Shown here piece by piece: positions 503 to 64,000 of a stretch of DNA of 64,000 bases. The first letter of the stretch is position 1. Each line of letters opens with the position of its first letter. The notes beneath the pieces are model-generated. The model did not search any database, was not told where the DNA came from, and was given only the letters and a program-made list of their open reading frames with translations. A program made the translations under genes and the position numbers. The stretch is from Clostridiaceae bacterium (GTDB lineage: Bacteria > Bacillota > Clostridia > Saccharofermentanales > DTU023), in assembly GCA_012838795.1 (NCBI GenBank), contig DUOO01000010.1:26411-90410 (forward strand), in the 5' to 3' direction.

Positions 503-518
503 CGAAAGGAGCGATTAA

Positions 519-34692: not shown

Positions 34693-34889
34693 TGCCTTAT
34701 ATTCCTTTAAATGATGCAATTTAGTCAAAGAACATGATTGCTGAATATTATAAAATTTTATTTAATATTGCAATTAACTCAAATTAACTTTAACATAAAA
34801 ATATCTCAAATGGATAAAACTATATATCAAATAAATAAAGACAAAAAAATTTTGAGTTGCTCAAGATTTTTTGTAATTGAGGGTAGTGC

Positions 34890-48457: not shown

Positions 48458-49630
48458 ATGATTGAATTAAAAAACATATATAAAAAATTCCCGGGAGGTT
48501 CAGTTGCCTTAAACAATGTTTCCTTTACTGTTGAAAAGGGTGAGTTTGTCAGCCTTATCGGTCCTTCAGGCTGTGGAAAAACAACATGTTTACGAACTGT
48601 TAATCGAATGACAGAATTAACCGGAGGCAGTATTCTGATCAACGGGAAGAACATTAATGATCTGAATCCCACGATTTTAAGACGTTCGATCGGGTATGTA
48701 GTGCAACAAATCGGATTAATGCCTCATATGACAATTTATGAAAATCTTATAACTGTTCCGAAACTGTTAAAATGGCCGGAAGAAGAGCTAAAGGCAAGAG
48801 CTCATCAATTAATCCGTTATGCAGAGCTACCGGAGGAATATCTGAAATATTATCCGGCCGAGTTATCCGGTGGACAGCAGCAACGTATCGGAGTAATGCG
48901 AGCTATAGCAGCGAAACAAAAAATTGTTTTGATGGATGAACCGTTTGGAGCATTAGATCCTGTTACCCGAAATGCTTTGCAGAATTTTATTATAAGATGG
49001 CATAATAAATTGAATGTAACGGTTATTTTTGTTACTCATGACATGGATGAAGCGCTGAAATTATCAGATAAAATTGTGATAATGAATAAAGGGGAGATTG
49101 TTCAATATGATACTCCGGAGAATCTGTTTAATAATCCGGTTAATGGATTTGTTGAAGAATTTGTCGGGGCAGGAAGACATTCAGAAGGTCAGCTGATTTT
49201 AAATGCTTTGCGACCGTATTTAATACCCACGGCAACGGTTAATATCACAAGTACAGTTGAAGATACTTTAGAAATTCAGGCGGAGCAAAATTCAAAATAT
49301 ATCTATGTCGTAGATGATGATGAGAAACTAATAGGATATATTGATGCTGATGATATTAGTGAAGCTGCACATGACATGCCGATATCAGATTATGTGAAGG
49401 ATACGGCATATGCTGATTTGGACACCAATTTAAAAGATGTGTTGTTTTTACTTAAACGCCTTGATTATAAACACATACCTGTAGTTGATGCGGATAACAA
49501 GTTTCAAGGTTTAATCACAGTGTCTTCAATATCAAGCCAAATTCATGAACAATTACTTGATTCTCATACGCCTCCGACTAGCATAAAAGATACCTGCAAG
49601 AATGATTCTCTCATCAAAAAGGAAGAATGA
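48458..49630 (+). CDS. opuCA: Osmoprotectant (betaine/carnitine/choline) ABC transporter ATPase with tandem CBS domains
   Basis: Walker A GPSGCGKTT, signature LSGGQQQR and Walker B LMDEPF. C-terminal CBS pair. A-B-C-D gene order as in opuC/opuB. Confidence 0.85.
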   Translation: MIELKNIYKKFPGGSVALNNVSFTVEKGEFVSLIGPSGCGKTTCLRTVNRMTELTGGSILINGKNINDLNPTILRRSIGYVVQQIGLMPHMTIYENLITVPKLLKWPEEELKARAHQLIRYAELPEEYLKYYPAELSGGQQQRIGVMRAIAAKQKIVLMDEPFGALDPVTRNALQNFIIRWHNKLNVTVIFVTHDMDEALKLSDKIVIMNKGEIVQYDTPENLFNNPVNGFVEEFVGAGRHSEGQLILNALRPYLIPTATVNITSTVEDTLEIQAEQNSKYIYVVDDDEKLIGYIDADDISEAAHDMPISDYVKDTAYADLDTNLKDVLFLLKRLDYKHIPVVDADNKFQGLITVSSISSQIHEQLLDSHTPPTSIKDTCKNDSLIKKEE

Positions 49631-49631
49631 A

Positions 49632-50258
49632 ATGACAGATTGGCTTATGCAAAATGGAACGAGGCTTTTAGAGAAAATTTTTGAACATGTCTATATGTTT
49701 GCAATTGCTTTAATTGTCGGAATATTAATAGCTGTGCCTCTGGGAATCTTTATATCCAGGTATAGAAAAACTTCTCAGGCGATTATTTCTGTGACTTCAG
49801 TATTGCAAACATTTCCATCGTTGGCAGTACTGGCTATTATGGTACCTATATTAGGTATCGGAAAAATACCGGCCATTGTGGCACTTTCTTTATATTCGTT
49901 ATTACCCATATTAAGAAACACCTATTTGGGTATCGTGAATATGAGTCCAGGAATAGTGGATGTAGCAAAAGGCCAGGGCCTGTCTTCAGCTCAGGTTTTA
50001 AGAGGAGTAATTTTACCTTTGGCTGCTCCTGTAATTATGTCGGGAATCAGAGTTTCAGGTGTATACTTGATTGCTTGGACAACACTCGCAGCGTATATCG
50101 GAGCCGGTGGTTTGGGAGACTTTATATATACCGGATTACAAAATTATGATATCAACTATATTCTGGGAGGGACGATTCCCGTTTCTCTGATGGCGATCCT
50201 CTTTGATTTGCTTTTTGGGAAAATAGAGAAGAAGGTTACACCGAAAACCCACAGGTAG
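49632..50258 (+). CDS. opuCB: Osmoprotectant ABC transporter permease
   Basis: BPD-type permease of 208 aa. The ATG lies 1 nt after the opuCA stop. Confidence 0.8.
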   Translation: MTDWLMQNGTRLLEKIFEHVYMFAIALIVGILIAVPLGIFISRYRKTSQAIISVTSVLQTFPSLAVLAIMVPILGIGKIPAIVALSLYSLLPILRNTYLGIVNMSPGIVDVAKGQGLSSAQVLRGVILPLAAPVIMSGIRVSGVYLIAWTTLAAYIGAGGLGDFIYTGLQNYDINYILGGTIPVSLMAILFDLLFGKIEKKVTPKTHR

Positions 50259-50278
50259 TGTTTGAGGAAAGGGAAAAT

Positions 50279-51286
50279 ATGAAGAAGAACAAAAAAAAGC
50301 TGATATATATGGTTTTGATCTTCTGTTTAAATATTATTTTACTAACTTCCTGCTCATGTGCTTTTCCCGGTTTAGGAGGCTCTGCTCAGGATAATGATAT
50401 TGTAATAGCGGGTGGAAATACGACAGAAAGACAAATTGTATCAGAAATTGTTAAGCAAATGATTCAGCATTATTTACCGGAATCTAAGGTTCATATAATC
50501 AATAATCTGGGCTCAACTCCTATTATTTATAATTCTCTGATAAATGGTGATACTAATGTTGCCGGAGTGATGTATACAGGCACCTCTTTGACAGGAGAAT
50601 TGGGAATGGATCCTCTGGGATCGGCAGAGGAGACAATGGAAGCAGTAGTCAAAGGTTACTATGAGCGTTTTGATATAGTTTGGTTTCCATCTTACGGTTT
50701 TGAAAATACATATTCCTTTATGCTTACTAAAGAAACCAAAGAAAAATATAATTTGAATAATACGAGTGATTTAGAACAATACGCAGATGTTTTGCGCGTT
50801 GGTGTTGATTCGGCTTGGCTTGATCGTCCGGGAAAAGACGGTTATCAAGGATTTTTGGATGTATATGGATTTGGTTTTGACAATCTTTTTTCTATGGACA
50901 TCGGTTTAGTTTATGAAGCAATTGCATCGGATCGTCTCGATATTGCCCTAGGCTACTCGACGGATGGCAGAATAAGCTCATATGATTTGGTTATGTTGGA
51001 AGATGACAGAGACTTATTTCCGCCTTATGAAACAAGTCCGGTAGTCACGATGGATTTATTAAAACAAAAACCGGAACTGGAATGGATTCTGTTAAAGCTG
51101 CAAGGACAAATTTCGTTAGAGACAATGCAGGACTTGAATAATGCGGCTGATGAATTAAAAACGGAACCCTATAAAGTTGCGAAGAATTTTTTGGCAGAAA
51201 ATAATTTTTTTGAAGAAGTGGCTCGCAGTTCTTTAAAAGAGATACCGCTTTACAAGGATTTTGATTTAGATTTTGAACAAGATTAA
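50279..51286 (+). CDS. opuCC: Osmoprotectant ABC transporter substrate-binding lipoprotein
   Basis: Lipobox LLTSC. OpuAC-type binding fold motifs (GYSTDGRI, LEDD...FPPY). Confidence 0.8.
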   Translation: MKKNKKKLIYMVLIFCLNIILLTSCSCAFPGLGGSAQDNDIVIAGGNTTERQIVSEIVKQMIQHYLPESKVHIINNLGSTPIIYNSLINGDTNVAGVMYTGTSLTGELGMDPLGSAEETMEAVVKGYYERFDIVWFPSYGFENTYSFMLTKETKEKYNLNNTSDLEQYADVLRVGVDSAWLDRPGKDGYQGFLDVYGFGFDNLFSMDIGLVYEAIASDRLDIALGYSTDGRISSYDLVMLEDDRDLFPPYETSPVVTMDLLKQKPELEWILLKLQGQISLETMQDLNNAADELKTEPYKVAKNFLAENNFFEEVARSSLKEIPLYKDFDLDFEQD

Positions 51287-51307
51287 AAGTGCAGTGGAGA
51301 AAGAGAA

Positions 51308-51958
51308 ATGACAGTTTTATTTCAATATTTTTCTGAAAATTGGCGATATATTCTTATACAGAGTCGAACTCATTTTCTAATTTCATTATATGGTGTCTTG
51401 TTAGCTTGTTTAGTTGCGATACCGTTAGGAATTCTGTTAGCTTATAAAAAGAAAAGTAATTCTTTATCAATGATGATCGCCAATATCTTACAAACTATTC
51501 CGTCGATTGCAATGTTGTCAGTATTGATGATTTTTTTCGGATTAGGCAGCAATACGGTTATAATTGCGAATTTTCTTTATTCCTTATTACCGATACTGAA
51601 AAATACATATGCAGGTATAACGAATGTCGACCCGAAATTGCTGGATGTTGCAGAAGGCTTGGGAATGACCAGGATTCAAAGACTATTTAAAGTGGTTCTT
51701 CCTTTAAGCATTTCGATAATCATAGGAGGAATTAAAAATGCCATAGTTGTTGCGGTAGGTATTACAACTGTCGGTACTTTTGTCGGATCCGGCGGCCTCG
51801 GTGATATCATTACGCGAGGAATCAATATGGTAGATGCAGGTGAAGTAGTATGGGCAGGAGCAATTGGAGCAGCCTTTATGGCAGTTTTGCTGGATATATT
51901 ATTGGGATTTGTTGAGAAGAAACTTACGCCGAAACAGAAGAGAGTATCATCTTTTTAA
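51308..51958 (+). CDS. opuCD: Osmoprotectant ABC transporter permease
   Basis: Second BPD-type permease, a paralogue of 49632-50258. Confidence 0.8.
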   Translation: MTVLFQYFSENWRYILIQSRTHFLISLYGVLLACLVAIPLGILLAYKKKSNSLSMMIANILQTIPSIAMLSVLMIFFGLGSNTVIIANFLYSLLPILKNTYAGITNVDPKLLDVAEGLGMTRIQRLFKVVLPLSISIIIGGIKNAIVVAVGITTVGTFVGSGGLGDIITRGINMVDAGEVVWAGAIGAAFMAVLLDILLGFVEKKLTPKQKRVSSF

Positions 51959-52140
51959 TGTATAAACAGATTTTTGATTATCGAATATTTAATTAATGCT
52001 TATGTGTTATAAAAAATCAAAACATTCTATACTATGATCAGCAGAAGGAAAATTTCGGAAGCAGATTTACGTTCTCCGGTCAATAGAAAGATGTTTTCTG
52101 ATTAAATATTATAATTCTTAAGAAAGTGAGGAGTTCCAGA

Positions 52141-53304
52141 ATGAAATATAATTTTGAAGAACGAAGATCAAGGGCAAATGTGGGTTCTTATAAATGGAAT
52201 GCCATGGGTGATCAGCCGGAGGATGTTATTCCTTTATCGACAGCCGATATGGAATTACTTTCCCCACCTGAAATAATAGAAGCTTTGAAAAAAGTGGCTG
52301 AATTCGGGATGTGGGGCTATACATGGTGGGATGAAAAATACTCCGATGCCATGCGTCATTGGATGCAAACCAGACACGGTTGGGAGATAGATCCGTCTTG
52401 GATTGTTCAGTTAAATGGCGTAGTCCAAGGTTTATATGCAGGAGTACGCGCTTTTACAGAGCCGGGAGATAAAGTATTAATAACCACGCCGGTTTATGGT
52501 CCTTTCTATAGAGCAATAAACTTGAATAATCGAGTAGTAGTAGAAAATGAGTTGGTGTTAAAAGACGGACGTTACGAAATTGACTTTGAAGATTTTGAAG
52601 AAAAAGCGAAGACAGCAAAAATATTTTTCCTGTGCAGCCCTCACAATCCGGTCGGACGTGTTTGGACGGCGGAAGAATTAAAAAGAATGGGAGATATTTG
52701 CAATAAATATAATGTATTGGTCTTTGCCGATGAGATTCATTTTGATTTTATTATGCCGGGTCATAAACATATTTGCTATGCGAATTTAGGAAAAGAATAT
52801 GCCGATAATTCGATTACACTCAATGCTGCAAGTAAAACTTTTTCATTGGCCGGACTTTGCGTAGGTAATGCCATTATTTCCAATGCCGAGCTCAGAGAAC
52901 GTTTTGATTTGGAAGTAAATGTTTCAGGATGTTATACCTACAGCATTTTCGGCAATCAAGCTTTAGTTACCGCATATACAGAGTGCAGCCAATGGTTGGA
53001 TGAATTAATCCGGCATATATATGGCAATTACATATATTTCAAAGAATATATGGGCAAAAACCATCCTGAAATATGGGTAGCAGACCTGGAAGGAACATAC
53101 TTAGCTTGGTTTGATTGTCGCTGTTTCGGAATGGAAAGCAAAGAGCTGGGCGAGTTTTTAGAGAAAGAGGCACAGCTGTTTTTTGACCATGGATATATCT
53201 TTGGTAGCGGTGGTGACGGATTTGAAAGAATAAATCTTGCATGTCCGAGAAAAGATTTAGAGAATGCACTTCGACGGTTTACCAACGCAGTTTCAAAGCT
53301 GTAA
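52141..53304 (+). CDS. patB: PatB/MalY-family PLP-dependent C-S lyase (cystathionine beta-lyase-like)
   Basis: N-terminus R..SYKW and PLP lysine region SASKTFSLAGL. Class I/II aminotransferase fold length. Confidence 0.8.
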   Translation: MKYNFEERRSRANVGSYKWNAMGDQPEDVIPLSTADMELLSPPEIIEALKKVAEFGMWGYTWWDEKYSDAMRHWMQTRHGWEIDPSWIVQLNGVVQGLYAGVRAFTEPGDKVLITTPVYGPFYRAINLNNRVVVENELVLKDGRYEIDFEDFEEKAKTAKIFFLCSPHNPVGRVWTAEELKRMGDICNKYNVLVFADEIHFDFIMPGHKHICYANLGKEYADNSITLNAASKTFSLAGLCVGNAIISNAELRERFDLEVNVSGCYTYSIFGNQALVTAYTECSQWLDELIRHIYGNYIYFKEYMGKNHPEIWVADLEGTYLAWFDCRCFGMESKELGEFLEKEAQLFFDHGYIFGSGGDGFERINLACPRKDLENALRRFTNAVSKL

Positions 53305-53517
53305 ATCTTTATTTCATAATTTGCTGAATCATCACAGGATGAGGTTCGGAGTAAATATCTGTATTTATTTTGATGTTCAGCAACTAAAGCGAAATTCGTT
53401 AAGATTGTTTTGCGTAACTTGATTAACTTTTTAGTAAAAATAAACTATAATATTATAGATTATAGTTAAAAAGACAGAAAAACATTTTAACAAATATAGA
53501 AAAAGAGAGGAATGTTT

Positions 53518-54660
53518 ATGGATTTCAAATTTACGGATGAAACACAATTATTGCAGGAGATGGTTAGTGAGTTCACGGAAAAAGAAATTGCACCGATTGC
53601 GGCGGAAATTGATGAAGAAGAAAGATTTCCGGAGGAAGTAGTAGCTAAAATGGCTGAATTAGGCTTTTTAGGTATTCCATTCCCGGAAGAGTACGGTGGT
53701 GCCGGAATGACAAATTTAGACTATGTTGTTGCGGTAGAAGAAATTTCTAAAGCATGTGCAAGTACAGGTGTTATTGTGTCAGCACATACATCTCTGGCAG
53801 CTTGGCCAATTTATCATTTTGGGACAGAAGAACAAAAACAAAAATATTTGGTCCCGTTAGCAAGTGGAGAAAAATTAGGAGCGTTCGGTTTGACAGAACC
53901 CGGAGCAGGTAGTGATGCTGCCGGACAAGAGACGAAAGCTGAAGATAAAGGTGATCATTATTTATTAAACGGAAATAAGATTTTTATAACGAACGGTTCT
54001 TATGCTGATATTTATGTTGTCTTTGCAATGACTGACAAAGAACAGGGAAACAGAGGTATCAGTGCGTTTATTCTGGAAAAAGGTATGCCGGGATTTAGCT
54101 TCGGTACAAAAGAGAAAAAAATGGGAATTCGTGCTTCTGCAACTTATGAATTGGTTTTTGATGATGTAAAAGTGCCGAAAGAAAATCTGTTAGGTGAACT
54201 GAATAAAGGTTTCGGTGTTGCAATGGCAACATTAGATGGCGGACGTTTAGGTATCGGAGCTCAGGCTTTAGGTATTGCTGAGGGAGCATTTAATGAGGCT
54301 CTTGCCTATGTTAAAGAACGCGAACAATTTGGCAGACCGCTTTCCAAATTCCAATATACTCAATTTAGATTAGCTGATATGTACTCACGTATAGAAGGTG
54401 CTAAATTATTGTTATACAGAGCGGCTTGCATGAAAGATGAAGGAGTTCCTTATTCAGCAGAAGCTGCCATGGCGAAGCTCGTGTGCTCAGAAACTGCCCG
54501 TGAGATTACATGGCAAGCAGTGCAGCTGTTCGGAGGATATGGCTACACAAGAGAATATCCGGTAGAACGTATGATGAGAGATGCAAAAATAACCGAAATT
54601 TATGAAGGAACTTCCGAAGTCATGAAGATGGTTATTTGGGGCAAATTGAACAGAATGTAA
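53518..54660 (+). CDS. Butyryl-CoA dehydrogenase-like acyl-CoA dehydrogenase (canonical catalytic Glu)
   Basis: Very Bcd-like throughout (FGLTEPGAGSD, LDGGRLGIGAQALG). The C-terminal ITEIYEGTSEV carries the MCAD/Bcd-type catalytic Glu. Confidence 0.9.
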   Translation: MDFKFTDETQLLQEMVSEFTEKEIAPIAAEIDEEERFPEEVVAKMAELGFLGIPFPEEYGGAGMTNLDYVVAVEEISKACASTGVIVSAHTSLAAWPIYHFGTEEQKQKYLVPLASGEKLGAFGLTEPGAGSDAAGQETKAEDKGDHYLLNGNKIFITNGSYADIYVVFAMTDKEQGNRGISAFILEKGMPGFSFGTKEKKMGIRASATYELVFDDVKVPKENLLGELNKGFGVAMATLDGGRLGIGAQALGIAEGAFNEALAYVKEREQFGRPLSKFQYTQFRLADMYSRIEGAKLLLYRAACMKDEGVPYSAEAAMAKLVCSETAREITWQAVQLFGGYGYTREYPVERMMRDAKITEIYEGTSEVMKMVIWGKLNRM

Positions 54661-54711
54661 TAATTCGGTTCTTTTAAGGACTGCTGAGCCGGTTACAGGT
54701 ACAATGAAGAA

Positions 54712-54739
54712 GGGTTTGCATGATTAGTTCAGCAAACCC
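54712..54739 (+). terminator. Hairpin between the Bcd-like gene and the first CoA-transferase (attenuator or weak terminator)
   Basis: 8-bp stem gggtttgc / gcaaaccc with a 12-nt loop, followed by tgattatt. Confidence 0.4.
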
Positions 54740-54804
54740 TGATTATTAATTATACTAAAGTTCGAAAAACATATTTTAATTTAGAAAAGATAAGGAGTGT
54801 AATT

Positions 54805-55986
54805 TTGCAACCATTAAAATCTTTGACAGTCATAGATCTGACAGAAGGCAATTATTTTGCCGGTAGTATGTTTGCCGATTATGGAGCAACGGTTATAAAA
54901 ATAGAAAAACCTGATCTGGGAGATAAATTGCGTCAGCGTGGCCGACCAGGCGAAGAAGGCAGATACCATAGCTACTATGATCGGGCAAAGAAAAGCATAA
55001 CTCTTGATATAAGCACTTCGGAAGGTCAGGAAATATTAAAAAAATTAGTACAAAACGCAGATATGTTTTTGACCAATATATCTTTGGAAAAAATTAGTGA
55101 ATATGATATTTCTTATGAGACATTGAAAGCTTTAAAACCGGATTTAGTGTACGGTTTATTAACACCTTTCGGAGAGGAGGGTCCGTGGAAGGACTATCCT
55201 GATTATAATCTGCTGGTGATGAGCCGCAGCGGTTTGCAGGAGAATACCGGTTTCCCGGAAGAACCGACAAGACTGGGTTTCCCATTATCATACATGTATA
55301 GCGGCTGGCTTTTAAGTGCAGGAATGTTGGCAGCTTATATACGTGCCAAAAAGACCGGAGAAGGTGCAAAAGTATCGAACAGTTCCTGGCATATGATGAT
55401 GTCGGTTGACGATACTTATGTCGAAAATCTTCTCGGGTTAAACGTGTTGCCTAAACGAATCGGCAACGGCTTTCCGACAACTAATCCGACAGATACATTT
55501 CGTTGTAAGAATGGCTGGTTTTCATTAAGTATCGGTACTGATAAACAGTGGATTTCGTTTGCACGGGAATGTGGTCGTGATGATTGGGCCGAGGATCCTA
55601 AATATGCACATGATCCCGCCAGATCTATGGAGAATTATTTCGGTGATCTGGATCAACAATTAAATGATTTCTTTAAGACGATTACGGTACAGGAAGCGGA
55701 TGAGATTTGCAGAAGAGCGATGGTACCCGGTGGTCCATGTAATACTATTGCCGAGCTTATCGAAGATGAGCAAGTTGCCAGCAGAGAAATGATTTTGGAA
55801 ATGGAAGATTCCAATGGCCAAAAGAGTCTGCAGATCGGTAAAGCTGCTAAATTTTCAAAAGAAAATGAAATGGATAACAACTTAGCTCCTGCGCCTGAAT
55901 TAGGAGAGCATACGGAAGAAATACTCAATCAACTTGGAATCAACCAAGAAGAAAGAGTGTTATTGAAAAAACAAGGAATTATTTAA
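54805..55986 (+). CDS. Family III CoA-transferase (CaiB/BaiF family), paralogue 1
   Basis: N-terminal L..L.V.DL.. glycine-rich fold and overall CaiB/BaiF-like architecture. TTG start 7 nt after AAGGAG. Confidence 0.85.
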   Translation: MQPLKSLTVIDLTEGNYFAGSMFADYGATVIKIEKPDLGDKLRQRGRPGEEGRYHSYYDRAKKSITLDISTSEGQEILKKLVQNADMFLTNISLEKISEYDISYETLKALKPDLVYGLLTPFGEEGPWKDYPDYNLLVMSRSGLQENTGFPEEPTRLGFPLSYMYSGWLLSAGMLAAYIRAKKTGEGAKVSNSSWHMMMSVDDTYVENLLGLNVLPKRIGNGFPTTNPTDTFRCKNGWFSLSIGTDKQWISFARECGRDDWAEDPKYAHDPARSMENYFGDLDQQLNDFFKTITVQEADEICRRAMVPGGPCNTIAELIEDEQVASREMILEMEDSNGQKSLQIGKAAKFSKENEMDNNLAPAPELGEHTEEILNQLGINQEERVLLKKQGII

Positions 55987-56026
55987 TAGGAGCTTGTCCA
56001 TAAAACCATAAAAGAAAGGGGAAATC

Positions 56027-57238
56027 ATGCCTGAAGAAAACAAAGGAATGTTATGCGGAGTAAAAGTACTTGATTTCACTTTAGCTTTATCAGGTCCTTT
56101 TGTAGCTTGGAACCTTGCAGATTGGGGGGCGGATGTTTATAAAGTGGAACGTTTATATTACGGAGACCAGGCTCGTCATTGGGATCCTATTGTGAACGGG
56201 TTGAGTACACTTTTTGTGGCATATAATAAAAATAAGAAAAGCATAGAAATAGATTTGTCGAAAGATGAAGGCAAACAAATAATTTATGATCTGGCTAAGG
56301 AATGCGATATTGTATTAGAAAACTTCAAGAGCGGTTCAATAGATCGCTTAGGTTTAGGCTATGAAAAATTAAAAGAAATCAATCCTAAATTAGTGTTCTT
56401 GTCACTGAGCGGTTTTGGTGCAACAGGACCTTTAAAACCTTATCCGTGTTACGATGCTATTGCTGCAGCCAGAAGCGGTTTTGCCAGCAGCAGCGGCAAA
56501 CCGGACGGAGCTCCTGTGAAGGCCGGTAATGCTATTTGCGATACTTTAGCAGGTACCTATGCACTTAACGCTGTATTAATGGCATATATCGATGCTCAAA
56601 TAACGGGAGAAGGAACACATATCGATTTAAGTATGACGGACGTCGCAATGGAAACGGTAGCAGAAAGCTTGATCGATTATTCTTATGATCAAGATTTTCA
56701 AATGCGAACAGGAAATCATGATCGATATTTTGCTCCTTATGGAATTTTTAAAGCTGCGGACGGCTGGGTTTCGATTATTGTTGATTCAGAGGAACGTTGG
56801 GCGGTATTTTGCAAGGAGTTAGAGCTCGCTTCAATTATGGATGATGATCGATTTGTTAATAATGCGAAAAGACTTGAGAATAAAGAAGAGTTAATTGAAA
56901 TTATTGAAAATAAAACAGAGAGATTATCTCGATTTTCAATAGAAAAGAAATTACTGGAAGCAGGAGTTCCGGCTTCCGCTATGCTGACTTTTATTGAAGC
57001 ATACACATCAGATCATACAAATTCAACCGATGTGCTGCAAATGGTCAATCAAAATAATATCGGTATGATGCGTTTCTATACGAATCCTTTGCGATTTAAT
57101 GATGAAGTATGTTCAATTCGTTCCGGAACTCCGTTGCTCGGAGAACATACGGTCGAAATCTTAGAAGATATAGGATACTCTGAAGAGAACATACAGGAAT
57201 TGTTAAAAGAAGATGTAATTGGAGAAAGTTTAATATAA
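56027..57238 (+). CDS. Family III CoA-transferase (CaiB/BaiF family), paralogue 2
   Basis: GVKVLDFT..SGPF N-terminus. The C-terminal LGEHT.EILEDIGYSEENIQELL resembles the E. coli CaiB C-terminus (ILKNIGYSENDIQELV) as I recall it. Confidence 0.85.
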   Translation: MPEENKGMLCGVKVLDFTLALSGPFVAWNLADWGADVYKVERLYYGDQARHWDPIVNGLSTLFVAYNKNKKSIEIDLSKDEGKQIIYDLAKECDIVLENFKSGSIDRLGLGYEKLKEINPKLVFLSLSGFGATGPLKPYPCYDAIAAARSGFASSSGKPDGAPVKAGNAICDTLAGTYALNAVLMAYIDAQITGEGTHIDLSMTDVAMETVAESLIDYSYDQDFQMRTGNHDRYFAPYGIFKAADGWVSIIVDSEERWAVFCKELELASIMDDDRFVNNAKRLENKEELIEIIENKTERLSRFSIEKKLLEAGVPASAMLTFIEAYTSDHTNSTDVLQMVNQNNIGMMRFYTNPLRFNDEVCSIRSGTPLLGEHTVEILEDIGYSEENIQELLKEDVIGESLI

Positions 57239-57315
57239 GAGTTATATTTTGCCTTTTAATACAGTATTATTTTTCGTGTTAAATGTTATTTTTTAAAATA
57301 TATAAAGGAGAAAAA

Positions 57316-58089
57316 ATGAGCAAAGAAAAAGTTTTGACTTCATTGGAAGATGGAATTCTGTTAGTAACTTTAAATCGTGAAGAAAAGCGTAATGCCATAG
57401 ACCCGGATACGGCACAACAATTAGAAGCTATTTTCAATGATGCAGAGAAAAATGATGAAGTTAGAGTAATAGTGTTAACCGGAACGGGAAATCGCAGTTT
57501 CTGTGCAGGGGAAGACTTGTCTGTATTTAGTGACAGCGGCGAAAGTCAAACTACAGTAGAACATGGTTTTGCGGGAATTACCGAAAGATTTTCAAGCAAA
57601 CCGTATATTTGTGCAGTGAATGGAACGGCGGTAGCAGGGGGTCTGGAAATTGCACTGTCGTGTGACATCATTGTAGCTTCTGAAAATGCCAGGTTTGGCT
57701 TATCGGAAGTAAGAGTCGGTTTGTTGGCAACCAGTGGCGGTTTAGTCAGATTACCGAACCTTGTTCCTCCTAAGATTGCTGCTGAAATGGCTTTGACCGG
57801 ACAATTGATCAATGCGGAAAAGGCGGAAAAAATTGGTTTGGTAAATTATGTAGTAGCTGAAGACGCCGTGTTGGAAAAAGCGTTAGAGATTGCAAAAACA
57901 ATTAAGAAAAATGCTCCGATTTCATTACGCCTGACTAAAGAAATTCTCCGGCTTTCCGGCCAAGTTTCTTTTGAAGATGCCATGAAATACAGCTCGCTTT
58001 GCTGGGACTATATTGAAAAAACGGAAGATGCCCAAGAGGGGCCTAATGCATTCCTCGAAAAAAGAGAACCGCAATGGAAAAACAGATAG
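57316..58089 (+). CDS. Enoyl-CoA hydratase/crotonase, CaiD-like
   Basis: Crotonase fold (FCAGEDL, AVNG.A.GGG.E.AL.CD). GFAGITE, VRLPNLVPP and the C-terminal EDAQEGPNAFLEKREPQWKNR resemble E. coli CaiD ([37 protein letters not shown]) from memory. Confidence 0.85.
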   Translation: MSKEKVLTSLEDGILLVTLNREEKRNAIDPDTAQQLEAIFNDAEKNDEVRVIVLTGTGNRSFCAGEDLSVFSDSGESQTTVEHGFAGITERFSSKPYICAVNGTAVAGGLEIALSCDIIVASENARFGLSEVRVGLLATSGGLVRLPNLVPPKIAAEMALTGQLINAEKAEKIGLVNYVVAEDAVLEKALEIAKTIKKNAPISLRLTKEILRLSGQVSFEDAMKYSSLCWDYIEKTEDAQEGPNAFLEKREPQWKNR

Positions 58090-58192
58090 AATTTCATTGT
58101 GATTTGAAAGAACATAGTTCAAATTGGGTTTTCTCGTTAACTTGAACAAAGAATAATAACGAGAAACCGAATCAACATATAAGAACAAAATG

Positions 58193-58238
58193 ATCTATAT
58201 ATATGCTCGATTTTTCGAAGTCGAGCATATATATAGAT
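58193..58238. promoter_or_regulatory. 18-bp perfect inverted repeat (10-nt spacer) between the crotonase and etfB
   Basis: atctatatatatgctcga (58193-58210) and tcgagcatatatatagat (58221-58238) are perfect reverse complements. Confidence 0.8.
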
Positions 58239-58274
58239 AGCAGAAAAAATATGAATGAAAAATGGAGGACGTTA

Positions 58275-59084
58275 GTGAACATTTTAGTTTGTGTAAAACA
58301 AGTGCCGGATACTACGGAAATCAGAATTGATCCGGTTAAGAAAACTTTGATCAGGGATGGCGTTCCGAGCATCCTGAATACCTTTGATGCTTTTGCTTTG
58401 GAACAGGCATTGCAACTGAAGGATAAGAATCCCGCCAATGTTAAGATTGTTGTTGCGTCTATGGGACCTAAACAAGCGGAAACGATGTTGAGGGATTGTT
58501 TAGCAGTTGGAGCAAATTCGGCTTATTTGATTACGGATCGCAAATTTGGTGGATCCGATACCTATGCGACAAGCTATATTTTATCTAAAGCTATGAAAAA
58601 AATTGAAGAAGAGGAAGGCTCTTTCGATATGATTTTTTGCGGTAAACAAGCGATAGATGGAGATACCGCTCAGGTAGGACCTGAATTGGCAGAACATTTG
58701 GGTTTACATCAAATTACTTATGCTATTAATATCACATTAAATGAAGATAATACTACTGCTTTAATCACTCGTGAAGTTGATGAAGGAAAAATTGTTGTCG
58801 AAGCCCGGATTCCTGTGTTGGTTACTTTTACCAAAACGGATGATTTAAGATTTGCCTCTATTATGAATAAGATGAAATCTAAGAAAGCGGAAATCAAAGA
58901 AATCAACTACGAAGATTTAGAAGGCATTGACGATACGAAAATCGGCTTGAAAGGATCCCCGACCAGGGTTGTGAAGTCGTTTACGCCGGATGTCAAGACT
59001 GACGGTATCATAATTCGCGAAGATGATCCTAACGAGGCTTTTGAGAAATTTGCCGAAGAGCTTGAAAAAGCGAAATTGTATTGA
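58275..59084 (+). CDS. etfB: Electron transfer flavoprotein beta subunit
   Basis: (V)NILVCVKQVPDTTEIRIDP is a canonical clostridial EtfB N-terminus. GTG 58275 lies 5 nt after GGAGGA. The longer ORF-track start is unlikely. Confidence 0.9.
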   Translation: MNILVCVKQVPDTTEIRIDPVKKTLIRDGVPSILNTFDAFALEQALQLKDKNPANVKIVVASMGPKQAETMLRDCLAVGANSAYLITDRKFGGSDTYATSYILSKAMKKIEEEEGSFDMIFCGKQAIDGDTAQVGPELAEHLGLHQITYAINITLNEDNTTALITREVDEGKIVVEARIPVLVTFTKTDDLRFASIMNKMKSKKAEIKEINYEDLEGIDDTKIGLKGSPTRVVKSFTPDVKTDGIIIREDDPNEAFEKFAEELEKAKLY

Positions 59085-59101
59085 CAGTGAGAGGTAAAAC
59101 T

Positions 59102-60109
59102 ATGTTTGAAAACAAGAATTTTTGGGTATATATAGAAACTAAAGAAGATGGATCTGCTAAAAATGGCGGCTTAGAACTTTTAGGACAAGCTCGTGAAATG
59201 GTGGATCAGGTAGATGAAGAAGTTATTGCCTTGATTATTGGTAATAATGTTGATAAAGCAGTAGAGCAAGTCAAAAAATACGGTGCAACATCTGCAATTG
59301 CAGTAACCGGAGATGTATACTCTGAATATAATACGGATGTGTACGCCAATGCAGTAGTAGAAAATGTTAAGGAATATCAACCGAATGTAATTTTAATTTC
59401 AGCTACCAGTTTGGGCAGAGATTTAGGACCGCGTGTAGCGGGTCGTTTAGCAACTGGCTTGACCGCAGATTGTACATCTTTAGGTTTTGAAGTTGATAAA
59501 AAAGAAGTTCAATGGACACGTCCGGCTTTTGGCGGAAATCTCATGGCGACAATCATATGTGCAGACCATAGACCTCAGATGGGAACTGTTCGCCCGGGTG
59601 TATTTGAAAGAAAAGAATACGAAATATCTCCGAACTTTGAAGTTATTACCAAGGATATCGACTTTCCGCAAGAGAAAATTCTTTCTCGTATTGTCGAGGT
59701 AATAGTAGATGAAGATGCAGATAACGTCGATTTGGAAGGTGCAGAAATTATCGTTTCCGGTGGTCGCGGACTCGGAAAACCGGAAAATTTCAAATTAATT
59801 GAAGAATTGGCAGAAGTATTAGGCGGAACAGTAGGTTCTTCGCGTGCAGCCGTTGACGCAGGATGGATTTCTCATGCTCATCAAGTAGGACAAACGGGAA
59901 AAACGGTAGGCCCGAAATTATATATTGCATGCGGTATTTCCGGTCAGATTCAACATCTGGCAGGGATGTCCGGATCGGATGTTATCATTGCTATCAATAA
60001 AGATGAGAATGCACCGATTTTCACAGTTGCGGATTACGGAATTGTAGGCGATTTGTTCACTGTTGTACCGAAATTGACAGAAAGAATTAAGAAGAAGAAA
60101 AATCTATAG
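59102..60109 (+). CDS. etfA: Electron transfer flavoprotein alpha subunit
   Basis: C-terminal FAD-binding region SGGRG..SRAAVDAGW..QVGQTGK.V.PKLYIA.GISG.IQH. No N-terminal ferredoxin domain. Confidence 0.9.
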   Translation: MFENKNFWVYIETKEDGSAKNGGLELLGQAREMVDQVDEEVIALIIGNNVDKAVEQVKKYGATSAIAVTGDVYSEYNTDVYANAVVENVKEYQPNVILISATSLGRDLGPRVAGRLATGLTADCTSLGFEVDKKEVQWTRPAFGGNLMATIICADHRPQMGTVRPGVFERKEYEISPNFEVITKDIDFPQEKILSRIVEVIVDEDADNVDLEGAEIIVSGGRGLGKPENFKLIEELAEVLGGTVGSSRAAVDAGWISHAHQVGQTGKTVGPKLYIACGISGQIQHLAGMSGSDVIIAINKDENAPIFTVADYGIVGDLFTVVPKLTERIKKKKNL

Positions 60110-60219
60110 TATCCTAATACAAGATATTTATCCGGTTTGTTCAAGTTTTCTTAAACAAGAATCAGAAAGATAGACAAATAAAAGATAAATAATAGCTCAT
60201 TATAATTATTTAAGTATCC

Positions 60220-60253
60220 AGAGCTGCTATTTATAAGGAATAGCGGCTCTTTT
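60220..60253 (+). terminator. Rho-independent terminator after etfA
   Basis: 12-bp stem agagcugcuauu / aauagcggcucu with one G-U pair, 7-nt loop, then TTT. Confidence 0.65.
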
Positions 60254-60329
60254 ACTTTGTTTAATGGGAATATAATATTTTTTGATATACTATGACAAAA
60301 CTATCTTTTTGATTGTTGTTAAGTACGAA

Positions 60330-60863
60330 TTACTTGTTTTTGAATTTTTCATAATGTCGACCGAGTGCATTAAGTGGCGGACACCAATTAATAAATAATG
60401 ATACACAAAGTCCTATTGTCATATTAATAAATCTGTCTGCTACATATATAAGAGGATCACTAATCCCTGATGAAGATAAACATGTAAGCATATAATAGAT
60501 TAGACCTATTGCTATACCGTCAGATAATTTCAATAAATTGAAAATTATCATCAAAGGTATTGTAAAAAGAGAGAATAAAATAACATAAAGTAAAGATAAG
60601 CTTTCAACATTTAATACACCGACAAAAAGATAGTAAAATATAATTGAATATATACCACTGATGACGATTCCCAAAATACGAAGTTTTCCGCGTGAGTAGG
60701 AACTATCCATATTAATTTGCATTACCAAAATAGCTGATATACCTGAAGTAACCATATTAGGAGAATCTCGCAAAATATCTATGGTGATACAAATAAATAT
60801 AGCCAATGTTGTTTTCAACATTCGCATCCCGGGTAGAAAATGACGTATTTTATTTTTTTGCAT
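60330..60863 (-). CDS. ArAE/FUSC (UPF0421)-like membrane protein, membrane domain only (177 aa)
   Basis: The R.LKTTLAIFICI N-terminus and the C-terminal R..N..IG...S..IN...PP pattern resemble aromatic-acid-exporter-family proteins. Roughly half the usual length. Confidence 0.5.
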   Translation of the reverse strand: MQKNKIRHFLPGMRMLKTTLAIFICITIDILRDSPNMVTSGISAILVMQINMDSSYSRGKLRILGIVISGIYSIIFYYLFVGVLNVESLSLLYVILFSLFTIPLMIIFNLLKLSDGIAIGLIYYMLTCLSSSGISDPLIYVADRFINMTIGLCVSLFINWCPPLNALGRHYEKFKNK

Positions 60864-60966
60864 TGTTAATTAATTTTCTATGTACTTTGTAAATTTTGTG
60901 CATAATAAATCAGATATGCCGGCAGCAAATCTTTGGCCGGCAACTGTATGAGATCAAATTAAAACT

Positions 60967-60997
60967 GCCAAACAATTACCGCCGGTAATTGTTTGGC
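60967..60997 (-). terminator. Rho-independent terminator after the MFS gene (minus strand)
   Basis: Perfect 14-bp stem gccaaacaattacc / ggtaattgtttggc with a 3-nt loop. On the minus strand it is followed by aGTTTTaattt. Confidence 0.75.
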
Positions 60998-61029
60998 GTT
61001 CTAAAACTGTTCTTGACAGCTGATTATTA

Positions 61030-62337
61030 CTAATCTGCTGCAGCTTCTTTTGCTGCCACAACTTTTTTGTGTTTGACAACGATTTTTTCGCCTAATATCG
61101 CAACTACAATACCGACAGCTGCCGTAATAAGCAAGAAGGTAAATATTCTCTTATAAGCAACCAACTGATCCAGATTGTCTAACCAATTTCCAAATAAGGT
61201 ATGGATAAAAGTATCCGGCAAATAACCTAATAAGGAAGCTGCACCGACAACACTGCCTACCATCATTTTCGGCGTTCCGGCTTCATCGATGATCGCCCAA
61301 TAAAGGGAGCGATTTCCGTAGCTGGCAAAACTGATTACTACCATAATTACCATCATTAAAATCAATGTTGAATTGGAAGGCGCAACTCCGACAAGAGCTA
61401 ATGAACCTAATAAAGCGATAACACATCCGACAATCAACATGAATGTAGAGCGTTTCATTTTAGTTGAGGCAATCCCGAAGACAGCAGATGCTGCCAGCCG
61501 GCTACCTTGAGCTCTGATTGCCTGGAACGTTCCTGTCGCAACTACAGTAAGTCCTGCGAAAGCTTGGAGATACGGGGCGTAATATGCTGCGACAGCATTC
61601 GCTGTAGAAGAAACGAAGATCATTACAATTAATACCCAAGTAATTGGCAACTTAAATGTACCGAGTATAGCTCTGATACTTTCTCTCATATTAGTATTCG
61701 ATACACCTTCGGCCTCCATTTTGGGGAAGAGGAACTGCATCAATATACCGACAAGAATCATGATAATTGATACAACAATTACCAGGAATGTGATTCCCTT
61801 AATATTACCTTCAGTTGTATCTACTATTTTTTTGGCGAAATAAGAGAAAGCTGCGATCCATACAGCGTTCAAAGCAAGTGTTACTATACCGCGACCGCCC
61901 TCTAAGGCACTATACATACCGCCTTGCTCGTCTGAACCGGCAATTAAGTTAACGACCTTGATTGATGCTGACCAATAGGTCAAAACGGTAGTAAAGGCCC
62001 ATAAAGCATGAATAATCAGTATTACCGTATAGCCCGGCCATGTGGCTAACCAAAGACCTAATGCACCGCTGGAAATCATTGAAAAGACTAACAGCTTTTT
62101 CGGGCTGAATCTATCTGCAATAATTCCGCCCGGCAAGTAGAATATTACGTTAAATAGTCCGTAAATTGACATTGTGTTCCCAAATTTTTCAGCTTCACCT
62201 ACCAAACCCATGGCTTGTTGCAAAGGTTCGAAAAAGGTGTATCTGATATAAGGCAGAACATAAATGGTTTCAAGCGAAAGAATCATCAGTATAAGAACAA
62301 TAAATTGATTCTTTCTTGATGTTTTTGATTTTGACAT
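61030..62337 (-). CDS. MFS transporter (12 TM)
   Basis: 435-aa polytopic protein. The D-R-x-x-x-K loop (IADRFSPKKLL) after TM2 is typical of the MFS. GAGGAGG RBS. Confidence 0.8.
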   Translation of the reverse strand: MSKSKTSRKNQFIVLILMILSLETIYVLPYIRYTFFEPLQQAMGLVGEAEKFGNTMSIYGLFNVIFYLPGGIIADRFSPKKLLVFSMISSGALGLWLATWPGYTVILIIHALWAFTTVLTYWSASIKVVNLIAGSDEQGGMYSALEGGRGIVTLALNAVWIAAFSYFAKKIVDTTEGNIKGITFLVIVVSIIMILVGILMQFLFPKMEAEGVSNTNMRESIRAILGTFKLPITWVLIVMIFVSSTANAVAAYYAPYLQAFAGLTVVATGTFQAIRAQGSRLAASAVFGIASTKMKRSTFMLIVGCVIALLGSLALVGVAPSNSTLILMMVIMVVISFASYGNRSLYWAIIDEAGTPKMMVGSVVGAASLLGYLPDTFIHTLFGNWLDNLDQLVAYKRIFTFLLITAAVGIVVAILGEKIVVKHKKVVAAKEAAAD

Positions 62338-62383
62338 ATTTACCTCCTCATATCATTCCTATTTTCATTAATATTTAATTAAT

Positions 62384-62426
62384 AACTGATACAATTATTT
62401 TATTTGGATTGATAATTGTATCAGTT
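62384..62426 (-). promoter_or_regulatory. Perfect 15-bp stem-loop between the CaiA-like gene and the MFS gene
   Basis: aactgatacaattat (62384-62398) and ataattgtatcagtt (62412-62426), with a 13-nt loop. Confidence 0.7.
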
Positions 62427-62443
62427 TAGGATATGCAATTTAT

Positions 62444-63583
62444 TTATTCATATTGTCTAAGTATTTGTTTAGTAGCAATTAATGTTTGAATTTCACCTGT
62501 TCCGCCGGAAATACGTGTGATTCTCAAGTCGCGATAAATCCTGCTTACACGACTGCCGCAGTAACCGATGCCGGCCAAAACTTGCATTGCATGATCAACC
62601 ACTTCATTTGCGGCTTCTGAGCAATACTGTTTTGCTAAAGAGGCTTCTTCACGTTTCAGAATACCTTGATCTTTATTCCAGGCGAAATGCAAGCAAAGAT
62701 CTCTCATGGTATAAATCCGCATTGCCATCTGCATGATATGGTTTCTGATCAGTTGTCTGCTTGTAATGGGTCTGCCTTGAACAAGCCTTTGATTGGCATA
62801 CCTGCAGGCATCTTCATAGGCACATAAAGCTTGACCATATGCATTGAAAGCATCAACCAGTCGTTCGTAATCCAGAGCACTGGAAGCAGCCGTTAAACCA
62901 TTTCCGATACCGCCGAAAATAGCAGCCTCGCTTACGACAACATCATCAAACCAAACATCGCATACATCTTCCATGTTCAGACCCATTTTTTCCATGGGTT
63001 CGACTCTGGCACCTTCTACTTTCGTAGGAACGAAAAACAAAGTTAATTCTTCGGGATTCTCTGAATTCTTTGCTAAAGTCATACAATAGTCGCTGTTTGT
63101 TGCCCCGGAAATAAAGTGCTTATGTCCGTTAATGGAGTAATTTCCGTCCTCTTTTAGCGTATATGTTGTTTGAATTGAATTGGAAGATAAGTCAGTTCCG
63201 GCACTTGGCTCAGAATAGCCTTGTGAAAAAGCCGATTTGCCTTCAAGGAATAAAGGCATAAACTTGTCAATTTGCTCCTGGGTTCCGTCAGTTTGCAGGT
63301 CGTCTACTTTTACATGTTCCCAGAACAGGTAGATAGGTGCACCAAGACGTCCCATCTCTTCCATGGCTAAAAACATGGATACTGCTCCCTCTCCGTCTCC
63401 GCCGTATTCTTCCGGAATGAACATACTATGTAAGCCTAAGTCAGAAATGATATCCCACCATTTTTGGGGGAACTCATGATTTCTGTCACATTCCAGAAAA
63501 TATGGTTCCAGATTTTCACGTGTCATTGCATCTCTGATAGCTTCGACCATTAGCTCTTGTTCTTCTGAAATTCTAAAATCCAT
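62444..63583 (-). CDS. CaiA-like acyl-CoA dehydrogenase (crotonobetainyl-CoA reductase / BbuA-type candidate)
   Basis: MDFRISEEQELMVEAIRD, GTQEQIDKF, AYGQALCAYEDACRYANQR and RDLRITRISGGTGEIQ parallel E. coli CaiA (MDFNLNDEQELFVAGIRE, GTQEQIDK, NYGTAMCAFEDAARYANQR, RDLRVDRVSGGSDEMQ) as I recall it. GAGGAGG RBS. Confidence 0.8.
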   Translation of the reverse strand: MDFRISEEQELMVEAIRDAMTRENLEPYFLECDRNHEFPQKWWDIISDLGLHSMFIPEEYGGDGEGAVSMFLAMEEMGRLGAPIYLFWEHVKVDDLQTDGTQEQIDKFMPLFLEGKSAFSQGYSEPSAGTDLSSNSIQTTYTLKEDGNYSINGHKHFISGATNSDYCMTLAKNSENPEELTLFFVPTKVEGARVEPMEKMGLNMEDVCDVWFDDVVVSEAAIFGGIGNGLTAASSALDYERLVDAFNAYGQALCAYEDACRYANQRLVQGRPITSRQLIRNHIMQMAMRIYTMRDLCLHFAWNKDQGILKREEASLAKQYCSEAANEVVDHAMQVLAGIGYCGSRVSRIYRDLRITRISGGTGEIQTLIATKQILRQYE

Positions 63584-63661
63584 AACTCCTCCTCTAAAAT
63601 AATATCTTATTTATTAAAAATGATTGCCAGGTTCCATTTTAGCTAAACTAATCCCGAGCAA

Positions 63662-63689
63662 CTTATAAAACATTCTAACGTTTTATAAG
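63662..63689. promoter_or_regulatory. 10-bp perfect inverted repeat upstream of the CaiA-like gene (operator candidate)
   Basis: cttataaaac (63662-63671), 8-nt spacer, gttttataag (63680-63689). Lies ~80-105 nt upstream of the start codon at 63583. Confidence 0.4.
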
Positions 63690-64000
63690 TATTCTTGCGC
63701 GATTATTATTGATTAGTTATAATGGCAACCAGCCAACCATAGTAAATATTACGAGTACAGAGTACAGTATCCAAAGCACCATGTACGTTGTTATTTTAAC
63801 ATAAGCTTTTTTGTAAAACAAGAATGAATTGTGATAATTGAACAAGGTGAATGGTGATTTTTAGTAATATTTTCTATGCAAAATATCGATTTTGAAAATA
63901 TAATAACGGTCTGTCTTTTGGAAAAACTTACCCGAAATTATTCAAAGAAGACGACTGTTGTGGTAGAATTATATAAGATATTTACGCACTCAAAGCAAAA

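Follow-up and report, generated by a model that had tools for sequence, protein, structure and literature searches.

The stretch of DNA analysed in this work, i.e., the window, comprises 64,000 nt of a Clostridiaceae bacterium (assembly GCA_012838795.1, contig DUOO01000010.1, positions 26,411-90,410 of the forward strand) and carries toward its end a set of genes for the metabolism of coenzyme A (CoA) thioesters. In an initial annotation made from the letters alone, this locus was viewed as a Gram-positive counterpart of the carnitine (cai) and gamma-butyrobetaine (bbu, also called gbu) systems joined to a butyryl-CoA dehydrogenase (Bcd) module. Following Pfam and NCBIfam scans, the nine open reading frames (ORFs) it had listed were all found in place and in the families proposed. 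The convergent layout it had described, with a six-gene operon on the plus strand facing the genes for a divergent acyl-CoA dehydrogenase (ACAD), an MFS transporter and a small membrane protein on the minus strand, was borne out as well. In window coordinates, the locus reads as follows:

53512-54660, plus strand: ACAD1, Bcd-type acyl-CoA dehydrogenase (four ACAD Pfam domains)
54805-55986, plus strand: CoAT1, family III CoA-transferase (CoA_transf_3, PF02515, 290 bits)
56027-57238, plus strand: CoAT2, family III CoA-transferase (CoA_transf_3, PF02515, 355 bits)
57283-58089, plus strand: ECH, crotonase-fold enoyl-CoA hydratase/dehydratase (ECH_1, 207 bits)
58203-59084, plus strand: EtfB, subunit of an electron-transferring flavoprotein (Etf; PF01012)
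59081-60109, plus strand: EtfA (ETF and ETF_alpha domains)
60220-60250, plus strand: terminator-like hairpin after etfA, at the end of the plus-strand operon (13-bp stem, then a T-run)
60330-60863, minus strand: small membrane protein of 177 aa, ArAE_1/FUSC_2-like (Pfam ArAE_1, 51 bits)
60997-60967, minus strand: terminator-like hairpin after the MFS gene, at the end of the ACAD2-MFS unit (14-bp stem, then a T-run)
61030-62337, minus strand: MFS transporter (MFS_1)
62444-63583, minus strand: ACAD2, CaiA/YdiO-family acyl-CoA dehydrogenase (the NCBIfam CaiA model being its top match)
63584-64000, no strand: divergent intergenic region up to the window end, the rest of the cluster lying beyond the edge

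Respective to gene starts, the second Met codon of ACAD1 (53518, MDFKF...) appears likelier than 53512, as first annotated, and the start proposed for ECH at 57316 agrees with the alignment to CaiD, the ORF itself opening at 57283. A promoter-like site lies near the ACAD1 start (53423-53451); the promoter scan returned 37 sites for 38.5 expected from shuffled sequence, i.e., no enrichment, and individual promoter-like sites are thus mere suggestions. The Rfam scan of the locus found no regulatory RNA. Since a terminator stands between the MFS gene and the gene for the ArAE_1/FUSC_2-like protein, the latter is probably a transcription unit of its own; of the mapped loci, none but the window and the closest genome (L001, a metagenome-assembled genome (MAG) of the Saccharofermentanales with an ACAD2 identity of 96%) encodes this protein.

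Three public metagenome contigs overlap the window and extend it, namely L131 and L130 (100% and 99.99% identical to it over 11.5 kb, respectively, and carrying an identical ACAD2 protein) and L132 (100% identical over a 9.8-kb overlap). All three run past the window end into a second Etf pair, hereafter EtfB' and EtfA', and a ligase, and an esterase is reached in L130. On this last contig, the genes past the edge are divergent from ACAD2 and encode EtfB' (257 aa; 41.5% identity to E. coli FixA and 39.5% to YdiQ), EtfA' (304 aa; 35% to FixB and 34% to YdiR), an AMP-ligase (524 aa; 38% to CaiC and 25% to FadK) and an Aes-like esterase of the Abhydrolase_3 family (336 aa). An Etf of the FixA/FixB type is hence present past the window end, YdiQ/YdiR being equally close; EtfA' is remote from every solved Etf. 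In the closest genome, the ligase reaches 592 bits on the NCBIfam CaiC model (cut-off 651), the next family following at 351 bits, and against the Aes acetyl-esterase model the esterase scores 371 bits, for a cut-off of 389; the esterases of the cluster match the BD-FAE and Aes families. The initial annotation had seen no CaiC ligase here, a claim that did not survive: because contigs about 100% identical to the window continue with these very genes, the absence of CaiC and FixAB is dismissed as an artefact of the window edge. In the closest genome, the far side of the cluster holds two esterase genes, after which come a tryptophanase/tyrosine-phenol-lyase-family gene (479-1924, minus strand; 556 bits on the tryptophanase subfamily model) and a gene for a patatin-like phospholipase (2639-3517, plus strand).

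The search for the same synteny, already envisaged in the initial annotation, recovered the gene set around ACAD2 orthologues in about 36 genomes and MAGs of Clostridia. In this genome scan, the orthologues share 66-74% identity, and in the ACAD2 protein search a gap down to 44% identity separates the group from what lies below. Carriers comprise Roseburia, Petralouisia muris, Lachnospiraceae bacterium 3-1 and Eubacterium sp. 14-2, as well as MAGs of Oscillospiraceae, Pygmaiobacter, Faecalibacterium and Hungatella, Clostridium brassicae and a digester MAG, and the guts from which carrier genomes originate are those of human, mouse, cat, rabbit and deer. By mapping the window proteins onto the loci and clustering all ORFs, a consensus gene set could be drawn with, on one strand, EtfA, EtfB, the CaiC-like ligase, EtfA' and EtfB' and, on the other strand, CoAT1, CoAT2, an MBL-fold hydrolase, ECH, ACAD2, ACAD1, an SSS transporter, the MFS transporter, the esterase and a LacI-type regulator, a YitT transporter being an occasional member. 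At least three gene orders occur, i.e., that of the Lachnospiraceae, one in which etfBA separates ACAD2 from ACAD1, and that of the window. The retention of the gene set across at least three rearrangements in different families argues for a functional coupling that includes ACAD1 and both Etf pairs. The cluster is real and conserved, far beyond a chance neighbourhood. The CoAT1 family is common in public metagenomes: a word-indexed search (E<=1e-30) returned 441 relatives, counted as 90%-identity clusters, the best 120 of which share 57-94% identity with CoAT1. Between CoAT2 and ECH, most cluster versions encode a hydrolase of 206 aa with an MBL fold and a likeness to glyoxalase II (L009, 8359-8979, and 14 other loci), which the window lineage lacks; this hydrolase may be a thioesterase replacing BbuF.

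Considering the enzymes one by one, ACAD2 is 40.6% identical to CaiA, 38.8% to YdiO and only 30.6% to BbuA (Emergencia timonensis sequence, taken from the supplement of PMC8364193), and its top NCBIfam match is the CaiA model with 381 bits, below the cut-off of 540. In a neighbour-joining tree of ACADs (200 bootstraps), an ACAD2 clade (100%), a CaiA clade (100%) and a YdiO-like clade (99%) are gathered in a joint superclade (100%), outside of which BbuA is placed. In the active site of ACAD2, the canonical YEGT Glu is replaced (RISGGT, SGGT) and a Glu of the isovaleryl-CoA dehydrogenase type is present (DYERL), a pattern common to CaiA and YdiO, while BbuA and ACAD1 retain the YEGT/WEGT Glu. 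ACAD2 represents a lineage of its own next to those of CaiA and YdiO, i.e., the third, and is presumed to be an enoyl-CoA reductase. As a candidate BbuA orthologue, it was rejected on its low identity, its place outside the BbuA clade and its different catalytic motif, and its greater identity to CaiA than to BbuA argues against a trimethylamine (TMA) lyase of the BbuA type. As such, the initial proposal of a CaiA- or BbuA-like ACAD stood for the CaiA/YdiO superclade and fell for the likeness to BbuA, and the elimination of TMA to yield crotonyl-CoA, which had been considered along with it, is left without homology support. Elsewhere, a YdiO-like ACAD (P0049) 42% identical to ACAD2 is found in a locus (L135, 600-18400) together with two family III CoA-transferases, two CitMHS transporters, a flavoenzyme resembling old yellow enzyme/2,4-dienoyl-CoA reductase, a crotonase and an AMP-ligase. 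UbiA/UbiE/polyprenyl synthase genes lie there too, as do FixC, EtfBA and, in the place of FixX, an ORF of 91 aa; the locus encodes a different, uncharacterised CoA pathway that is apparently quinone-linked.

The second dehydrogenase is of another kind. Among solved proteins, ACAD1 best matches Bcd of the Clostridioides difficile Bcd/EtfAB complex (5OL2_C, 558 bits), CarC following with 384 bits, and it keeps the canonical YEGT catalytic Glu; its identity to BbuA is 33.9%, again outside the BbuA clade. On NCBIfam, EtfB scores 295 bits with the EtfB and 232 bits with the AcrB model, and the best solved relatives of EtfA are all bifurcating Etfs, namely CarE (349 bits), C. difficile EtfA (314 bits), the A. 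fermentans protein and T. maritima FixB (306 bits each). The canonical Bcd with EtfBA that had been annotated at the outset is hence upheld: by homology, ACAD1 and EtfBA are a canonical bifurcating-type Bcd/Etf, and across the related loci they are fixed members of the cluster. They most likely constitute a second enoyl-CoA reductase, NADH-dependent and ferredoxin-reducing, which would make the pathway an energy-conserving electron sink, and the substrate may be crotonobetainyl-CoA, crotonyl-CoA or another enoyl-CoA. The likeness to Bcd/EtfAB (5OL2) and to the CarCDE complex of Acetobacterium woodii (6FAH), both enoyl-CoA reductases with flavin-based electron bifurcation, is clear from the 558 bits of ACAD1 to Bcd and the 314-349 bits of EtfA. 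Unlike in these systems, the neighbours of the module, for which bifurcation is predicted, are not thl/hbd/crt or carAB but the genes of a Cai/Bbu-like cluster.

The two CoA-transferases pair one-to-one with BbuB and BbuC, the sequences of which were taken from a metagenome contig with a 100% BbuA match (L097). CoAT1 is 38.4% identical to BbuB (276 bits, vs 143 bits to BbuC) and CoAT2 40.5% identical to BbuC (319 bits, vs 196 bits to BbuB), and the CoAT1-CoAT2 gene order is that of BbuB-BbuC. Experimentally, BbuB and BbuC form a complex and both proteins are needed to make gamma-butyrobetainyl-CoA (PMC8364193). CoAT2 (ICDTLAG motif) and BbuC retain the catalytic Asp (CaiB D169), which is replaced by Tyr in CoAT1 and all its orthologues and by Glu in BbuB, so that CoAT1 is presumed to be a non-catalytic subunit. 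Identity to CaiB is 24% for CoAT1 and 27% for CoAT2, no solved transferase being any closer, and the CaiB NCBIfam model gives 116 and 164 bits, respectively, for a cut-off of 413. A CaiB-like nature was rejected on these grounds, and the long diagnostic strings that the initial annotation had believed to recognise between the transferases and CaiB give way to a BbuB/BbuC-type heteromeric pair, as their sequences indicate. A word-indexed search for the nearest outside relatives of CoAT1 and BbuB listed orthologues of the respective query throughout. When 1.84 billion representatives were scanned exhaustively with HMMER (1,887 matches at E<=1e-30), the nearest single-domain relative of CoAT1 outside its own family proved to be a BbuB-family representative, 65% identical to BbuB (P0376); other top matches are numerous proteins of about 800 aa in which two family III transferase domains are fused (P0361-P0375 and others). 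In one of them (P0361), a BbuB-like N-terminal half is followed by a CoAT2/BbuC-like C-terminal half, a fusion that supports a heteromer with one catalytic subunit.

With BbuBC-type transferases at hand, one could conceive that a single cell converts (acyl)carnitine or gamma-butyrobetaine to TMA and crotonyl-CoA, where ACAD2, with or without Etf', would act as a BbuA-like TMA-lyase and Bcd/EtfBA would carry crotonyl-CoA on to butyryl-CoA. This would provide a clear job for the always-present Bcd/EtfBA module, and in E. timonensis the crotonyl-CoA released by BbuA is handled by enzymes encoded elsewhere in the genome. Were it true, many gut Lachnospiraceae and Oscillospiraceae would take host or dietary (acyl)carnitine to TMA and butyrate, with energy conserved by electron bifurcation, by means of a second, independently evolved anaerobic TMA-lyase, overturning the view that going from carnitine to TMA needs two organisms. 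Against it stand the distance of ACAD2 from BbuA and its loss of the YEGT Glu that BbuA keeps, as well as the lack of BbuD, BbuE and BbuF homologues reported below. BbuA homologues were defined in the discovery paper by an identity above 70%, and none of the carrier organisms of the cluster belongs to that published set. All in all, such a scheme appears quite improbable.

The crotonase ECH shares 41% identity with E. coli CaiD and conserves both catalytic Glu; its score on the NCBIfam CaiD model is 199 bits for a cut-off of 500. Its best solved relatives are mycobacterial EchA proteins, and two among the first three were deposited under the name of carnitinyl-CoA dehydratase. The resemblance to CaiD stated in the initial annotation is real in this respect, yet CaiD is not the top family.

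As for uptake, the MFS transporter has orthologues with 41-52% identity in most loci, and its full-length sequence has 27% identity with the MFS transporter of a canonical caiABC-fixABCX cluster found on a metagenomic contig with a GC content of 52% (L133, 6612-17951). The gene order in the latter is MFS, Abhydrolase_3, caiA, caiB, caiC, MaoC, TetR and fixABCX, i.e., the canonical cai type with a MaoC-fold hydratase instead of CaiD and an MFS transporter instead of CaiT. In Propionibacterium freudenreichii, the presence of MFS and hydrolase genes tracked acylcarnitine depletion, together with higher carnitine and putative gamma-butyrobetaine (PMC11007987). Clusters of this type resemble the one described here in that an MFS transporter and an Abhydrolase_3 enzyme are coupled to CaiA/CaiC-type genes, the esterase of L133 being 38% identical to that of the window lineage and its CaiC, at 39.6% to E. 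coli CaiC, as distant as the ligase here. What sets them apart is the presence of FixCX and of genuine CaiA (P0051 in L133, 60% identity with the E. coli protein) and CaiB (43%), and the lack of Bcd/EtfBA and of the BbuBC-type pair. Found in L133, in P. freudenreichii and here, the pair of MFS transporter and Abhydrolase_3 enzyme therefore recurs with Cai-type enzymes in three lineages.

When the window and 40 related loci were searched with tblastn, neither E. coli CaiT, CaiE, FixC, FixX and YdiS (E<=1e-5; CaiF was not searched) nor the BbuD ferredoxin, the BbuE BCCT transporter and the BbuF thioesterase gave a match, and YdiF gave none in these loci either. The lack of BCCT, CaiE and FixCX noted at the outset is in this way extended to the related loci. 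Compared with E. coli caiTABCDE and fixABCX, homologues of CaiA (40.6%), CaiC (38-39%), CaiD (41%), FixA (41%) and FixB (35%) are present and the logic is alike, i.e., thioester activation, dehydration and enoyl-CoA reduction. Here, on the other hand, a BbuB/BbuC-type heteromer takes the place of CaiB, CaiT/BCCT, CaiE and FixCX are missing, Bcd with bifurcating EtfBA, an MFS transporter (and elsewhere SSS and YitT) and Aes-like esterases are added, and in most carrier genomes the MBL-fold hydrolase and the LacI regulator as well. Compared with bbuABCDEF of E. timonensis, which takes gamma-butyrobetaine to TMA (PMC8364193), an adjacent family III pair occurs in the same order at 38% and 40% identity, with one subunit devoid of the catalytic Asp; there is here no BbuA orthologue (both ACADs being 31-34% identical and outside its clade) and no BbuD, BbuE or BbuF. 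The cluster does not belong to the cai type because CaiB, CaiT, CaiE and FixCX are missing, nor to the bbu type because BbuA, BbuD, BbuE and BbuF are, and the composition fits neither system, as first proposed. In its predicted proteins, it is a hybrid sharing modules with cai and bbu, plus a Bcd/Etf complex. In the open literature, subscription-only papers not being covered, only caiTABCDE, bbu/gbu and the Propionibacterium cluster were found described and not this one, in keeping with the undescribed variant suspected initially.

A further point of comparison is the E. coli ydiF-ydiO-ydiQRST-fadK set, respective to which ACAD2 is 38.8% identical to YdiO and Etf' 34-40% to YdiR/YdiQ, i.e., as similar as to CaiA and FixAB, whereas the ligase here is CaiC-like and not FadK-like (25%) and homologues of YdiF and YdiST are wanting. 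On that basis, the substrate could be other than a betaine, either in an anaerobic, YdiO-type short-chain acyl-CoA or enoyl-CoA route, for example from 3-hydroxybutyrate, its esters or crotonate to butyrate, or in a car/fld-like reduction of ester-bound hydroxycinnamates; esterases would free the acid, ligase and transferase would activate it, and the ACAD/Etf modules would reduce the enoyl-CoA. The near-canonical Bcd nature of ACAD1, CarE of the caffeyl-CoA reductase as best solved relative of EtfA, the matches of the esterases to BD-FAE/Aes, the LacI-type regulator, the lack of a BCCT and the ArAE-like protein of this lineage all go in this direction. Conversely, the ligase is clearly CaiC-like (38% vs 25% to FadK, and 592 bits vs 351 bits for the next family), the transferases are of BbuBC type with no YdiF match, ACAD1 is much nearer to Bcd than to CarC (558 vs 384 bits), and no 2-hydroxyacyl-CoA dehydratase, hbd or thiolase is encoded in the cluster, leaving a non-betaine substrate doubtful.

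The reading favoured here, tentatively and as plausible rather than probable, is that the locus constitutes the larger part of a conserved clostridial CoA-dependent reductive pathway that yields gamma-butyrobetaine from L-carnitine or O-acyl esters thereof, or from crotonobetaine. Uptake of the substrate would be through the MFS transporter, with an adjacent OpuC-type importer as a possible second route in this genome; the Aes-like esterases encoded beyond the window would free carnitine from acylcarnitines, and the CaiC-like ligase, also beyond the window, would prime the pathway by making the first betainyl-CoA. CoAT1/CoAT2 would next pass CoA on to new substrate, with either the product thioester or a short acyl-CoA as donor, the CaiD-like crotonase would dehydrate carnitinyl-CoA to crotonobetainyl-CoA, and ACAD2 would reduce the latter to gamma-butyrobetainyl-CoA with electrons from the FixAB/YdiQR-type Etf'. 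All of these steps, as well as the assignment of the substrate, are inferred from homology. What speaks for a carnitine-type betaine is (i) the joint presence of four Cai/Fix-type parts, namely ACAD2, the CaiC-like ligase, the CaiD-like ECH and Etf', (ii) the correspondence of CoAT1/CoAT2 to BbuB/BbuC in order and in Asp asymmetry, (iii) the recurrence of an MFS transporter and an Abhydrolase_3 esterase beside cai genes in L133 and P. freudenreichii, and (iv) the maintenance of the gene set through at least three rearrangements, with an OpuC-type importer adjacent in this genome.

Several observations weigh against a pathway for carnitine-type betaines. BCCT, CaiE and FixCX are absent from the window and the 40 related loci and no CaiB orthologue is present, no gene reaches the NCBIfam equivalog cut-off for a Cai protein, and generic crotonase models outscore the CaiD model for ECH. 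Inside the ACAD superclade, branching is unsettled (ACAD2 with CaiA at 49-57%, CaiA with YdiO at 42%), and ACAD2 is about as near to YdiO, the function of which is unproven, as to CaiA. A second complete enoyl-CoA reductase module is not needed by an E. coli-type scheme, a PatB-family C-S lyase recurs near the cluster with no evident role in a betaine pathway, and the usual regulator elsewhere is LacI-type with SSS and YitT as other transporters, none of them typical of betaine systems. Carriers include genomes from rabbit, roe deer and an anaerobic digester as well as Clostridium brassicae, the name of which suggests a plant source, so that dietary carnitine cannot be the general driver. It is on account of the sub-cut-off Cai scores, the nearness to YdiO, the lack of a BCCT, the LacI/SSS/YitT components, the carrier range and PatB that our confidence was kept tentative.

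In another reading, the same chemistry would be applied to a different "onium" carboxylate, activated as a CoA thioester, and each of the two ACAD/Etf modules would reduce one of two successive enoyl-CoA intermediates. The compound might be delta-valerobetaine (5-AVAB), one of the Lachnospiraceae-derived analogues of carnitine (3M-4-TMAB and 4-TMAP), beta-alanine betaine, or a sulfonium compound such as dimethylsulfoniopropionate (DMSP). The similarities to Cai and Bbu proteins are all only about 40%, compatible with a shifted substrate; two reductase modules would suit two enoyl-CoA steps, e.g., those of a C5 betaine via a dienoyl-CoA; the top-scoring models for ACAD1, EtfA and EtfB are AcrC, AcrA and AcrB of acryloyl-CoA reductase; and the host range is wide and includes herbivores. 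A 2025 preprint names no genes for 3M-4-TMAB and 4-TMAP. Regarding sulfonium compounds, the nearest relatives of CoAT1 outside its family include two-domain family III transferases, a layout shared with DddD, which acts on DMSP; these 800-aa relatives are candidate DddD orthologues, for which NCBIfam has no specific model, and DMSP is rare in mammalian guts. A substrate of this kind is held to be unlikely.

In the gut, the anaerobic conversion of carnitine to gamma-butyrobetaine is credited to the cai operon, described in one paper as widely distributed in Enterobacteriaceae (PMC10653785), and that of gamma-butyrobetaine to TMA to a few bbu/gbu carriers (PMC10989800). The present cluster unites enzymes resembling those of the cai and bbu systems in Clostridia that are common in the gut. 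Cultured carriers exist, among them Petralouisia muris NM01_1-7b, Lachnospiraceae bacterium 3-1 and Clostridium brassicae ZC22-4. If, in line with the favoured reading, carnitine-type betaines are the substrate, these bacteria would be new and abundant Gram-positive contributors to the pro-atherogenic carnitine/gamma-butyrobetaine/TMA axis and to acylcarnitine turnover, their marker genes would be missed by present cai/bbu screens, and the pathway would be a candidate for an electron-bifurcating "betaine respiration." If the substrate is something else, the cluster still encodes a widespread, uncharacterised two-reductase CoA pathway.

Upstream of ACAD1, two further features lie next to the cluster:

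48419-51958, plus strand: OpuC-type betaine/carnitine/choline ABC importer (order ATPase, permease, binding protein, permease)
52126-53304, plus strand: PatB-family C-S lyase with a class I/II aminotransferase fold (TIGR04350, 408 bits, cut-off 340)

In the importer, the ATPase scores 353 bits on the proV family (cut-off 326.6), the permeases resemble ProW/ChoW and the binding protein resembles OsmF. While the presence of the importer next to the cluster was rightly annotated, membership was not retained, as it was not found in the other mapped loci of the cluster and is a neighbour in this lineage only. Orthologues of the PatB-family lyase (65-89% identity) accompany the cluster, at no more than 10 kb from it, in 10 other loci that belong to different families (L012-L015, L019, L020, L023, L025 and L035 among them), the side and the strand differing between loci.

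The remaining content of the window corresponds to ordinary chromosomal housekeeping genes. A cobalamin riboswitch (25194-25363, plus strand; Rfam RF00174, 80.5 bits) lies directly upstream of genes for the anaerobic class III ribonucleotide reductase NrdD (25415-27763) and its radical-SAM activase (27702-28304), and would put this B12-independent reductase under B12 control. A 2083-aa surface protein (3582-9833, plus strand) has six SpaA (prealbumin-like) domains and two of the T-Q ester-bond type, and resembles a large adhesin of Gram-positive bacteria. Two genes for Y-family (ImpB/MucB/SamB) DNA polymerases, both on the minus strand, are located within 22 kb of each other (11307-12551 and 33448-34728).

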